From positions 10,726,001-10,790,000 of the forward strand of contig OZ024755.1 in the NCBI GenBank assembly GCA_964016885.1: 64,000 nucleotides of DNA. Direction: 5' to 3'. The notes under the pieces were generated by a model. The model did no database searches, was not told the origin of the DNA, and saw only the letters and a program-made list of their open reading frames with translations. The translations under genes and the position numbers were made by a program. Every line of letters begins with the position of its first letter. Positions within the stretch are counted from its first letter, which is position 1. This stretch comes from Eledone cirrhosa. Taxonomy: Eukaryota. Positions 1-42,541 of the stretch are shown in pieces.

Positions 1-462
1 ATGTATATAATCAAGGTCAAATTTGCCTATCATCCGGCCGTATATTTATGTGGTGTCCCTAAATTTCCCTCAGCAGTTATGGGATCATACATACATAGGT
101 ACATAAACCATGCTTTAAACTTTATTTGAAACCTTAATCTAATTATGTATTGTATTAAATATCTGGCGAATTGTTTTTTTTTATTTCTTCTTTCCAAATA
201 TATCTAATACTCCTCGAAAAAAGAGTTGCATTCTATTATATATATTTCGGAATTTATGTTTATATGTGTGTGATCTTCCTCGGACTTTAAGAGATTATTC
301 CCACTTCTCATTACATTCTAATCATGTCCCCCCTCTTTCTTTTCTATATAGCTATTGCCACTCCATGCCCCTTCCACTGTTTTATATTACTTGTCGTTCC
401 TTTCTCTGTCGTTTAAAGATGTGCAAGTCTTATTTCTTACGGAAGCAATTCGGTTCTTTGGG

Positions 463-779
463 ACCGCAACCTGGTACAGTCTGCGACTGACCCACGTTCT
501 GCTGCACGTCGGGCTGGGGGGGCCAAACTCCTCAAATACCGGTCGCTCTACGACAGGTTTGCGGTCGTACCCCTGGCAGTGGAGACTTCTGGTGTCCTCG
601 GCCCCAGCGTTACCTCCTTACTCACCACCATAGGCGCTGAGCTGGCCAGCCGCAGGTGTGAGCCCCGCGAGTTCGAGTGGCTTTTCCAGCGCGTCTCCCT
701 TGCCGTCCTCCGGGGAAACGCCTTCTCCATTCTGTCCGCCGGTGCTGTGGGTGGGCCCCATCGCGTACCAATACATTAG
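463..779 (+). mobile_element. 3' fragment of a CRE-clade/RLE-type non-LTR retrotransposon (restriction-like endonuclease C-terminus)
   Basis: GC-rich island whose frame reads RNLVQSATDPRSAARRAGGAKLLKYRSLYDRFAVVPLAVETSGVLGP...WLFQRVSLAVLRGNAFSIL. This matches the K..KY..L...F.P.A.ET.G and QR.S.A..RGNA motifs of CRE-like ORF ends. 5'-truncated. Confidence 0.8.
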
Positions 780-11666: not shown

Positions 11667-13288
11667 ATGGTATTGCGAGGTGGTCAGCTCGGTTGTGCAC
11701 ACAGCGCTAACAGATGGGACGAACTCGACTCCATCGAGGTAAAGTTAGTGGACGAGCAGTGTCACCACCGTCAACACTACCACCACCACCATCAACGTCA
11801 CCTTCTCCACCACCACCGACTACTCGCACCGTCGAACTTCGAAGACCTCACTAACACTACCACCAACACCACAACCACTAACAATAACAACAACACCACC
11901 ACCAACAACAACAACAACAACAACAACAGCAACAACAACCACAGCAACTACTGCTACACCACTACTGTACCACCACCACCTCCGCCACCACCTTCTCCAC
12001 CAGTGCCACCACCACCGCCGCCACCACCAACAACAACAACATCACTGCCACCACCTTCAACATTACACCACCACCATCATCACCACAACCAGTTGTCTTC
12101 GCCGTCGTGTTTCGGGGTAATACGACCCCATCGTCACATTCCTTACCCCCCGTCATCTTACCACTATCATCCAGCTCTCGGATTGTCTCATAGCTTACCA
12201 CGCGACAATTCTGAACATTACGGAAGACAACAACAACTGCTACAACAACAACAACAGGGGCACTACTATCAGAATTGCTATTTACATAACCAACAACAAC
12301 AACGTCAACATCATCTCCTAGAAAAAGAACAACAACAACAAAAGCAACAACAATATCAACAACATCACTATCATCAACAACACATATATCAAAGCGTCTA
12401 CGAAAAAGACGACGAGGAAGCAGAAGAAAGAGAAGAAGAAGAAGAAGAAGAGGGAGAAGAAGAAGAAGAAGAAGAAGAAGAAGAAGGAGTTGAAGAAGAA
12501 GAAGAAGAAGAAGAAAAAGAAGACGAAGAAGACACAGAGGAGGAAGACACAAGTGTGCCAACAGTGAAAACAACAACTACAACATCAGTGTCAACAAGGC
12601 CATCTTCACTATTAACATCATCATCATCACCATCATCGGAACAGTTACCATCAGATGCACATGTAGCAGCGGCATTAGCAGCAGCAACAGCAACAACAAC
12701 AACATATGTGTCAGCATCTTCATCATTGTTATCATCGCCACCACAACAACCACCATCACCACCACTACAACCACCATCATCATTATTATCATCGCCAACG
12801 CCGTTAAGAGGGCGTTGTCGTCGGCCGCTACTATTATCGCGACCATTATCACCAATAGGAACTACACCATCAACTACAACACCACCTTCATCAGCAACAC
12901 CACCACAGTTGCCGTTAATTTCGGCCAGAGATTCGTTTGCTTGCACGCCGGGATTTCTCGATGAAAGCCCACCGCTTTCACCGGCTCGTGCTGAACGCAA
13001 GCCTCTTAAAGTTGGTTTCATCGGCATGGAAGAAGATGAAGATGATGATGGACTTGATGGTGAACAGGATGCTGCCGAGGACGGACGCCACCGTAATACC
13101 AGTAAATTCGGTCTCCGGAAAGGTATGAACTGTAAAAGATATCATCAACCGCGGATGTCTTTACTAGGAAAACCTCTTCATTTTCACGGCCACAGGAGAG
13201 ATGCTAAGTACCGCAAACTCCAGGCCCGGATTTACAATTTTTTGGAGCGACCCAAATCATGGCCATCGGCGTTATACCATATTTTTGT
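11667..13288 (+). CDS. KCNQ: KCNQ (Kv7) voltage-gated potassium channel, first coding exon (cytoplasmic N-terminus to start of S1); partial gene
   Basis: The exon ends in PRMSLLGKPL.....RRDAKYRKLQARIYNFLERPKSWPSALYHIFV, the KCNQ pre-S1 signature (YNFLERP..W...YH). The consensus donor GT|GTAAGT at 13288/13289 splits the Val codon in phase 2, the same position as the first intron of vertebrate KCNQ1/KCNQ2. First in-frame ATG is 11667; the frame is open from 11031, so the start is less certain than the identity. Confidence 0.92.
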
Positions 13289-13420
13289 GTAAGTACATAT
13301 AAAACTCATAATAATAATAATAATAATAATAATACCCCCCCCCTCCAACCCCCCAAAAAATTAGAATAAAGATACCCCTACCCCGCCCACAAAATAATGA
13401 TAATAGCAAAAAATAGATAA

Positions 13421-15941: not shown

Positions 15942-15995
<54 letters not shown>

Positions 15996-16001
<6 letters not shown>

Positions 16002-16062
16002 TAACAGATTAAAGTTTAAGCAAAGAATCGCTGCTTTCACCCTTAAATTTATTATTATTACT
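15996..16062 (-). mobile_element. Family B hammerhead-like element, internally deleted copy
   Basis: ttaaaataacagattaaagtttaagcaaagaatcgctgctttcacccttaa joined directly to the terminal atttattattattacta; lies in (TA)n. Confidence 0.75.
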
Positions 16063-23854: not shown

Positions 23855-24043
23855 ATAATAATGGTTTCTACTTTAGGCACAAGGCCAGCAATTAACCAGT
23901 GCATTATTGGTACTTTTATTTTATCGACTCCGTAAGGATGAAAGGCAAAGTCAACCTCGGCGAGATTTGAAATCAGATCGTAAAGGGACATAACTATGCT
24001 TGAAAGCATGGCGTCCGACCCTCTACCGATACTGCCAATCCAC
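23855..24043 (-). mobile_element. SINE family A (short-tail variant), near full length
   Basis: Near-identical to the 44520-44710 copy. Confidence 0.9.
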
Positions 24044-24046
24044 AAT

Positions 24047-24290
24047 AATAATAATAAATTTGAAGACTAAAATCCAAAGAGGGCTCGTTAAGGATAAATA
24101 TATATCAAATAGATAAGAACCGTAGAGCAAATATTTATTAAAATGACAGATTAAAGTTTAAGCAAATAATCGCTGCTTTCACCCTTAACGGGATCTTAAC
24201 AGATTGACTTTGTTAGTTTCAGAAGATCCCGTTAAGGGTGAAAGCAGCGATTCTTTGCTTAAACTTTAATCTGTTATTTTAATAAATATA
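24047..24290 (+). mobile_element. Family B element, longest copy, with internal ~68-bp inverted repeat and hammerhead-like motif
   Basis: The left end matches the reverse complement of 36535-36603. Arms ~24130-24197 and ~24223-24290 are inverted repeats. Confidence 0.75.
24215..24265 (+). ncRNA. Type I hammerhead-like motif with variant core (CAGAAGA instead of CUGANGA)
   Basis: AGTTT | CAGAAGA | T CCC GTTAA GGG T | GAAA | GCA GCGATTCTT TGC | T T | AAACT: stems I, II and III all pair; predicted site CUU at 24258-24260. Confidence 0.6.
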
Positions 24291-24324
24291 TATATGTATA
24301 TGTATATATGTTTATATATATATA

Positions 24325-24382
<58 letters not shown>

Positions 24383-24395
24383 TTATATATATATA

Positions 24396-24451
<56 letters not shown>

Positions 24452-24453
24452 TT

Positions 24454-24504
24454 AGTTTCAGAAGATCCCGTTAAGGGTGAAAGCAGCGATTCTTTGCTTA
24501 AACT
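24454..24504 (+). ncRNA. Second identical copy of the variant hammerhead-like motif
   Basis: Same sequence as 24215-24265, ~240 nt downstream, separated by (TA)n/(TG)n. Confidence 0.6.
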
Positions 24505-24520
24505 TTAATCTGTTATTTTA

Positions 24521-24590
<70 letters not shown>

Positions 24591-28961: not shown

Positions 28962-29168
28962 ACGAAGGAGGTGTGGTAAGGAACCAGATGGACCATAACG
29001 CACCAGAGTACTCAATAGTTAGGGTAGTAGAGTGGGTAACTATATATATATATATATTTATTTATTTATTAAAATAAAAGATTGAGGTTTAATCAAAGAA
29101 TCGCTACTTTCCCCCTTAACGGGATCTTCTGAATTTAGTCTTCGGATTTTAGACTTCACGTTTATTAT

Positions 29169-29172
<4 letters not shown>
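28960..29172 (-). mobile_element. Family B element (degenerate hammerhead-like) next to the shared 80-bp tail
   Basis: 28960-29040 is nearly identical to 15722-15802. 29057-29172 contains aagaatcgctactttcccccttaacgggatcttctgaa. Confidence 0.7.
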
Positions 29173-29216
<44 letters not shown>

Positions 29217-36068: not shown

Positions 36069-36432
36069 ATATATATATATATTATATATATATTATATAT
36101 ATATTATATATATATATATTATATATATATTATATATATATTATATATATATATATTATATATATATTATATATATATTATATATATATATATATTATAT
36201 ATTTATTATATATATATTATATATATATATATTATATATATTTTATATATATATATATATTATATATATATTATATATTATATATATATTATATATTATA
36301 TATATATTATATATATATATATTATATATATATTATATATATATATATTATATATATATTATATATTATATATATATTATATATTATATATATATTATAT
36401 ATATATTATATATATATATATAATATATATTT
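35151..36432. repeat. ~1.3-kb almost pure AT array
   Basis: Only a handful of G/C bases; AA-interrupted units on the left, TT-interrupted units on the right. Confidence 0.95.
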
Positions 36433-36605
36433 ATTAAAATAACAGATTAAAGAACCGCTGCTTTCATCCTGAACGGGATCTTCTGAAACTAATCTGTTAT
36501 TTTAATAAATATTTTTTTTTTTTATATATATTTATATATTTGATATATATTTATCCTTATCGAGCCCTCTTTGGATTTTAGTATTCAAATGTATTATTAT
36601 TACTA
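36431..36605 (-). mobile_element. Family B element with deletion across the predicted cleavage site
   Basis: Reverse complement reads aaataacagattagtttCAGAAGAtcccgttcaggatGAAAgcagcggttctttaatctgttatttt; lacks gcttaaacttt. Confidence 0.75.
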
Positions 36606-36834: not shown

Positions 36835-36885
36835 AGATTCCTGATGATTTCTAAAGAATGAAACAATTCTAGTCCTGTAGAATCT
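36835..36885 (+). ncRNA. Type I hammerhead ribozyme, canonical core, within a Penelope-like pseudo-LTR remnant (~36695-36902)
   Basis: AGATTC | CTGATGA | T TTC TAAA GAA T | GAAA | CA ATTCTAGTCC TG | TA | GAATCT: 6-bp stem I and GUA triplet (cut after 36879). TATAAATA lies upstream at ~36805, ATTAAA downstream, and (TA)n on both sides. Confidence 0.75.
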
Positions 36886-37006
36886 CATCTATATTAAATA
36901 CTATATATATATTATATATATATTATATATATATTATATATATATTATATATATAATATATATATTATATATATATATATATATTGTATATTATATATAT
37001 ATATAT

Positions 37007-42339: not shown

Positions 42340-42489
42340 CAGGGTTCAGTTAGTAAGGTAGTCAGTACCTTAGTAGAGTGAGAACATCAAGTTTAATACA
42401 AAAATATGTTGTACAGGGCTAGACCTTATAATTGTTTCTTATTAATGAAACAGTTCTAGCCCTGTAGAAGCAATTTCTATATTAAACTT
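42340..42489. mobile_element. Penelope-like remnant: inverted pair of hammerhead 3' halves related to the 36835 ribozyme
   Basis: GAAACAGTTCTAGCCCTGTAGAAGC..TCTATATTAAA (42447-42487) resembles 36860-36898; an inverted copy lies at 42389-42438. Confidence 0.65.
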
Positions 42490-42493
42490 TATA

Positions 42494-42541
<48 letters not shown>

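Follow-up and report, generated by a model that had tools for sequence, protein, structure and literature searches.

A short repeated element with a hammerhead-like motif, CAGAAGA in the core, occurs in several copies in the window (the whole 64,000-nucleotide stretch of Eledone cirrhosa DNA analysed here), and raises the questions of what kind of element carries the motif and whether a hammerhead with A in place of the conserved U4 (U4A) still cuts. The role of hammerheads in Penelope-like elements (PLEs) is at stake, since these elements conserve the ribozyme although insertion in vitro proceeds normally with a catalytically dead version (PMC11167929). A high-copy family with a fixed core change constitutes a natural experiment on this role. 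Absence of cutting by the U4A ribozyme would mean that amplification in vivo can do without cleavage; cutting would mean that a purine is tolerated at position 4 in some contexts and that descriptors anchored on CUGA undercount such ribozymes.

Hammerhead fold and core of the family

A type I hammerhead descriptor, run at three stringencies, matched the window with one core deviation allowed only at 24220 and 24459 (copies A and B) and at a canonical motif at 36841, and matched none of 100 dinucleotide shuffles (54 kb without microsatellites, both strands). Copies A and B both display the type I topology, with three stems around the junction and stem I open (Table 1), and all core positions are canonical (C3 G5 A6 N7 G8 A9, G12 A13 A14, A15.1-U16.1, H17) except for the change of U4 to A. 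Proximal stem I (24215-19 with 24261-65) is extended past the bulge by nine more base pairs (24199-207/24266-74), which an earlier note on this DNA had missed; copy B is without this distal strand, from its truncation point. Stem III comprises five pairs (24243-47/24255-59) closed by a near-palindromic loop of 7 nt. The earlier note had all three stems pairing correctly, which holds for A and B, two of the four core-bearing copies, but not for copy C, where the G15.2-C16.2 pair is broken, a U·G stands at the base of stem II and stem I is shortened, nor for copy D, in which an 11-nt deletion takes out the cleavage site. As that note had also stated, every core-bearing copy carries CAGAAGA (24220 and 24459 on the plus strand, 29131 and 36485 on the minus strand), and stem II opens with a U10.1·U11.1 pair both here and in the canonical motif near 36835. 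Copy E, a fifth insertion, begins in loop II and so lacks the core. Judged from sequence, the U4A motif is almost certainly homologous to hammerheads.

Table 1. Features of the U4A element and of a second hammerhead family in the window
Feature	Position	Strand	Remarks
Tail of about 85 nt beyond the usual 3' end	24047..24130	-	only on the inverted 5' piece
GCTCT...GAGCNCT motif, tail start	24080..24128	-	resembles a motif at the tail or 5' start in consensi of the Hydra clade
3' end in inverted, 5'-truncated form	24131..24197	-	starts inside the core; 65/67 nt complementary to A
Copy A, core and stems	24199..24290	+	preceded by inverted piece 24047..24197
Stem I, 5' strand	24199..24219	+	distal 9 nt 24199-207, 7-nt U-rich bulge 24208-14, proximal 5 nt 24215-19
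Core strand C3-A4-G5-A6-A7-G8-A9	24220..24226	+	U4A = 24221
Stem II	24227..24239	+	U10.1·U11.1, three C-G pairs (24228-30/24236-38), 5-nt loop
G12-A13-A14-A15.1, stem III, N17	24240..24260	+	predicted cleavage after 24260 (N17 = U24260)
Stem I, 3' strand (24261-74), and AT-rich 3' end into (TA)n	24261..24290	+	
Spacer between A and B	24290..24450		microsatellite, outside the element
Copy B	24451..24529	+	same sequence as A; truncation point 9 nt before the core
Copy C	29133-29063 within 29063..29174	-	91.5% to A; inverted tail piece 29139-29174
Copy D	36492-36426 within 36426..36602	-	inverted 3' end and tail 36490-36602
Copy E	15988-16046 (direct part), 15988..16060 overall	-	short inverted tail piece
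Canonical CUGAUGA type I hammerhead, second family	36835..36885 or 36835-36901, core 36841	+	U·U, 3-bp stem II, about 22 nt before (TA)n

Thermodynamic prediction placed the hammerhead fold of copy A 2.1 kcal/mol above the minimum free energy (MFE) at 37 C, and because the fold of the canonical motif at 36841 lies farther above its own (7.6 kcal/mol), distance from the MFE is not discriminating. The stability of copy A is unremarkable (z -0.63), and the predicted pairing probability of proximal stem I is only 0.05-0.08. Compensatory changes were found at none of the 13 pairs among six near-identical window copies, nor was any paired change found in sequencing reads. Local scans with Rfam models gave no hammerhead match for the U4A motif or for the canonical control at 36841; an Rfam search of the whole window yielded only microsatellite-driven, miRNA-like matches among the 150 of 566 matches listed. 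Also considered was a pistol-like or PK-hammerhead fold, the latter having a pseudoknot in place of helix II (PMC11300833); this was set aside because stem II here is an ordinary hairpin. Two minority bulge letters of copy A (C24208, G24212) complete a local hairpin of 8 bp (24201-24219) that competes with stem I.

Positions 24198-24288 were compared at 80% likeness with four of 23 sequence runs, tabulating letters from 2% upward: raw DNA reads (X21; 8,233 matched, from a reduced-representation library with duplicates), a contig set that is possibly the window's own source (X1; 9,082 matched), and contigs of organism B (X5; 1,421) and organism C (X6; only 3). At 24221 neither T nor any other letter reached 2% in any of the four runs, with a read depth in X21 of about 5,000; A4 is therefore the family state, among relatives at least 80% alike (a CUGA sister family below this limit would be invisible), and the motif is a hammerhead variant rather than a canonical member. 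The view that U4A is a family trait and not local decay is thus upheld, and so is the proposal of a retroelement family whose core CUGA-based searches would miss. A coding constraint on A4 was set aside: U4 would give one frame a stop, but this frame ends four codons later.

Closer examination of the reads indicated that 24199-24219 is native to the family, with 1,404 and 705 reads continuing into one shared, non-microsatellite upstream flank, which was not found elsewhere in the window. A second ribozyme upstream was considered and set aside: the flank before 24199, of which 30 letters were available, opens with letters in which another, minimal hammerhead could end. CAGAAGA was also present in the loose-end consensus of 23 organism B contigs with a different upstream flank, and the organism B flank variants that keep the core number 23 and 52 contigs, with a consensus agreement of only 0.47-0.48. 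Three sites show at least 20% of another letter in some run, namely 24208 and 24212 in the bulge (57% and 73% in X21) and 24233 in loop II (97% of organism B); all are predicted to be unpaired and non-core, for which we calculate a chance of about 0.06 (35 of 91 positions are of this kind). CpG sites show 5-10% decay, and low-level core changes in X21 (C3 4.7%, A6 2.2%, G8 about 7%, G12 about 4%) are as expected of ageing copies. The sequences of organisms A and B are distinguished by about one position, which leaves little evolutionary depth to show selection.

Insertion structure and origin of the element

All five direct copies in the window, which is AT-rich DNA with abundant (TA)n and (CA)n, end at one common AT-rich point before (TA)n, and (TA)n adjoins the 3' end of all five insertions, a target preference shared with Hydra-clade PLEs. 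The hammerhead lies 28-30 nt before the 3' end, in the manner of the terminal-repeat hammerheads of PLEs but in variant form. The left end of insertion A sits in (AAT)n, within the tail of what we take to be a SINE-like repeat with an (AAT)n end (23860-24046, plus strand). Read on the minus strand, 24197-24047 proved to be the element's own 3' end running on into a tail, a feature absent from the earlier note. Inverted tail pieces also precede C, D and E, so that in four of the five insertions 5'-truncation goes together with an inverted 5' piece and a tail on one side; tail pieces recur in the loose ends of 303 reads, and opposite-strand joints were also found in reads. Inverted, 5'-truncated copies with a one-sided tail have been described for PLEs, with a tail usually cited as 30-40 nt against about 85 nt here (10.1101/2021.04.23.441226), and the PLE tail corresponds to the stretch between two reverse transcriptase (RT) start sites (PMC11167929). 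Strand switches make up 14 of the 15 joints listed (of 17), and 10 of these 14 start at 24215-24223; fold-back at the palindrome by proximal stem I is a likely cause of such joints.

The tail itself opens with GCTCT, followed 37 nt later by GAGCCCT, the only match to this pattern in the window, where 0.04 would be expected for a gap range chosen after the motif had been seen; pairing of GCUC with GAGC is absent from the predicted fold. By eye, GCTCT...GAGCACT appears in the tail or at the 5' start of three of six Hydra consensi and GCCCCT...GGGCACT in one, with the motif present twice in Hydra-1_Ajap, in its GCCC/GGGC form in Hydra-1_Crog, and absent from the one octopus Hydra consensus of that file (PMC8557442 File S7). 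The spacer is longer here than the 12-17 nt of those consensi. A remark on the GCTC/GAGC motif was not found in the available text of PMC8557442, and the GCTC-hairpin-GAGC-ACT motif of Hydra-clade consensi could represent an RT start or recognition signal.

With Hydra-clade ribozymes the element shares the type I layout, a short stem II, placement close to the 3' end, insertion at (TA)n, and U10.1·U11.1, which we counted by eye in 14 of the 25 families tabulated (PMC8557442 File S2). Nearly all families in File S1 of the same study target (TA)n, and the clade is described as having a stable stem III of 3-4 bp and an inverted 5' copy in one family, and includes an octopus member (PMC8557442). 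Conversely, loop III is 7-9 nt here as opposed to about 1-3 nt in the clade, and the canonical core near the 3' end that characterizes Hydra-clade elements is matched here in layout, whereas the core is U4A. All 25 tabulated families have U4 (PMC8557442 File S2), partly by construction, since these ribozymes were found with a CUGA descriptor. No RT or GIY-YIG domain was detected with Pfam among 253 ORF pieces of the window, and none was linked to the short copies; nor did a protein search with a single frame through copy C give a match. Four 11-mer probes of the family found no match in the PMC8557442 supplement, where line breaks could hide one. A Naiad origin was provisionally set aside, as no probe matched the Naiad consensi, subject to the same line breaks. 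Exact 18-mer matches in metagenomes (12 of 12 loci) and 15-mer matches in viral contigs (34 of 34) did not extend into the motif and were dismissed as chance. On the features given above, the element is very probably of PLE origin, and membership of the Hydra clade is reasonably probable.

A model of insertion can be proposed in which the RT/endonuclease of the element would nick AT-rich DNA and reverse transcription would begin at two sites on the RNA separated by about 85 nt. From one of these starts would come the direct copy, whose end lies about 28 nt past the predicted cleavage site, and from the other the inverted piece with its tail. As inserted copies span the cleavage site, the template would be uncut or re-joined RNA, such that a slow ribozyme would cost little, and the motif may persist as a folded element whose cleavage is low and perhaps assisted by protein.

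Lunse et al. 2017 reportedly describe about 150,000 PLE-associated hammerhead variants. Full-text literature searches gave no description of a natural U4A hammerhead or of this family, with the figures of Perreault 2011 and Lunse 2017 being places that could contain U4A. The main text of PMC3088659 does not include it, and Figure 5 and Figures S6/S7 of that paper could; the natural core variants reported there (Perreault et al. 2011) are single-position departures from an otherwise complete core, as is the present one, and U4C and U10.1-U11.1 are both listed. The text of a 2026 octopus repeat annotation contains neither 'hammerhead' nor 'ribozyme' (PMC13282606; its consensus library is held at Zenodo). 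The minimal hammerheads (min-HHRs) of metazoan PLEs resemble this family in occupying a PLE terminal repeat, in their mostly dispersed, truncated copies and in a near-palindromic loop III, and have low activity in vitro; they differ in that helix III is absent or 1-2 bp, helix II is long with G10.1-C11.1, an extra nucleotide follows A9, and the core variant reported is U3-A8 rather than U4A (PMC4209133). The U4A family has instead a 5-pair stem III, a 3-bp stem II and U·U. A hammerhead at a PLE 3' end is of a known kind and U·U at 10.1/11.1 was already known (PMC3088659 section 8; PMC7229834; Hydra-clade families of PMC8557442), while a U4A core fixed across a family appears to be new.

Predicted cleavage by the U4A core

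The reading we tentatively favour as a whole is that of the 3' end (pseudo-LTR) of a (TA)n-targeting PLE, probably of the Hydra clade, in which U4A would slow cleavage strongly while the fold is kept. As a control, viral contigs were scanned with one stem-II pattern in which a single core letter was changed, and stems I and III were checked by script; the pattern fixes G10.1-C11.1, unlike the U·U of this family, and counts refer to contigs rather than independent events. With U4, an estimated 1,900 stretches were matched, and among 133 distinct matches sampled 125 form the full fold, compared with 33 of 76 distinct matches for U4C (L188-L273), none of 12 candidates for U4A, none of 22 for U4G and one of seven for G5A. 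The absence of U4A from full folds suggests that this change probably slows cleavage strongly. Two further observations from this control are that U4C is fairly common in phage contigs, at about 2% of the canonical estimate, and that the G5A match with a complete type I fold (L304 61-88, minus strand) is either a decayed copy or another variant.

Published work on the core points both ways. In pairwise mutagenesis, mutants of the CUGA region were low in activity except for a C3G/G8C swap, and double mutants within that region gave no rescue (PMC9901934); in the structure, a sharp turn of the backbone lies between U4 and G5 (PMC11300833), and U4 touches the A6-N7 phosphate (PMC3088659 section 8). 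Natural variants such as U4C keep activity, however, and tertiary contacts may offset core changes (PMC3088659), while A6C is active in Mn2+ (PMC7151607). Retained function in the present family is suggested by the canonical state of all other core positions and by the flank variants of organism B that keep the core. Weighing the phage control, the mutagenesis and the structural role of U4 against the otherwise canonical core, we favour slowed cleavage over both a dead ribozyme and a fully active one.

The strongest competitor, which we regard as somewhat unlikely, is that the same PLE 3' end carries a dead ribozyme, with a U4A founder amplified without need of cleavage and a core that has not yet decayed. 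Such an origin would agree with the absence of A4 from complete phage hammerheads, with the lack of covariation noted above, and with the finding that ribozyme-dead RNA of the PAc element inserts normally in vitro, its ribozyme cutting only with protein (PMC11167929). It would also agree with a shallow burst, as 6,229 of the 8,233 matched X21 reads are 90-99% like copy A and the two organisms are near-identical. Against it stand the core-keeping flank variants in organism B, at the low consensus agreement given above, the tendency of common variants to avoid core and stems, and the canonical ribozymes kept in 25 of 25 Hydra-clade families (PMC8557442), from which the motif would normally matter.

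At the other extreme, near-normal cleavage would require that tertiary contacts or an element protein rescue A4, the contacts proposed linking loop II to the U-rich bulge of stem I, or the core strand to loop III. The complete architecture with its 5-pair stem III and long, bulged stem I is compatible with such rescue, as are the active natural core variants (PMC3088659) and A6C in Mn2+ (PMC7151607) and the complementarity of loop III UUCU to A4-A7 over 4 bp. This match is short, however, would occupy G5, and is also present in loop III of the canonical motif at 36841; given in addition the phage U4A candidates, none of which folds fully, and the lack of rescue in double mutants (PMC9901934), we consider a fully active variant improbable. 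An active purine-4 hammerhead, rescued by a tertiary contact or an element protein and adjusted to leave most RNA uncut and fit for insertion, is a speculative proposal to which we give only slightly more credence. Were it true, PLE families listed as hammerhead-less may hide similar cores.

Other origins, the tandem pair and neighbouring features

A source other than a PLE, such as a SINE end or a MITE with a borrowed or coincidental hammerhead-like fold, would explain why no ORF is linked to the element and why Rfam returns no hammerhead for the U4A motif; it is very unlikely, since the canonical motif at 36841 also escapes Rfam, shuffled sequence never matched the descriptor, and variable inversion points with a one-sided tail misfit fixed terminal inverted repeats.

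The two sense copies A and B match at 79 of 79 nt and lie at a distance of 239 nt from one another, much as had been described before. Retrozyme units range from 170 to 400 nt, and the arrangement had been interpreted as a tandem layout like that of retrozymes, with a unit of about 240 nt, in which the two ribozymes could fold as a dimer and set free an RNA of unit length or a circle. The identical copies are consistent with this, as are the near-palindromic loop III, a cross-copy stem III probability of 0.85 when 24199-24535 is folded alone, and the derivation of animal retrozymes from PLEs (10.64898/2026.07.22.740005). We find the interpretation highly improbable and abandon it, given that the 161-nt spacer is microsatellite (96% AT/TA/GT/TG steps), the upstream sequence native to the family is a different one, insertions C, D and E stand alone, the probability of a cross-copy stem I is only 0.09, none of the 15 joints listed (of 17) returns 239 nt, and copy A is predicted, in context, to be locked in a 67-bp hairpin with the upstream inverted piece (0.88, plus-strand transcript).

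Retrozymes resemble the U4A family in carrying a type I hammerhead in a repeated, non-coding element (PMC7229834; 10.64898/2026.07.22.740005), and U·U likewise stands at the base of helix II in the axolotl retrozyme HHR_Amex2 (PMC7229834). They are tandem, however, with a conserved body and, in these sources, units of 220-390 nt, whereas U4A copies are dispersed, with one tandem pair and microsatellite between; a tandemly conserved unit with one hammerhead each is not found here. Copy B, which starts immediately after (TA)n, is a second insertion or local duplicate, and the A/B pair may also reflect an assembly duplication. A dimer is not needed, as stem III has five pairs; in folding models one would be possible in a trimmed construct, but would not be the design of the family.

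With respect to the genomic setting, an exon matching KCNQ potassium channels (13140-13289, plus strand) is followed by a GT donor, which places the U4A locus probably in a long intron. The repeats of the window as a whole have a cephalopod-like appearance. If the KCNQ intron reaches that far, A, B and the canonical motif at 36841 are sense, and C, D and E antisense. A 120-aa frame at 417-779 (plus strand), which has no Pfam match, presumably resembles the C-terminal restriction-like endonuclease of a non-LTR retrotransposon. In the second hammerhead family, loop III of the canonical motif is a 6-nt complement of its own cleavage site, and the alternative hairpin could block cleavage. A core-less relative of this second family lies at 42404-42500 (plus strand; 81% over 52 nt), with an inverted piece of its own 3' end before it and (TA)n after it.
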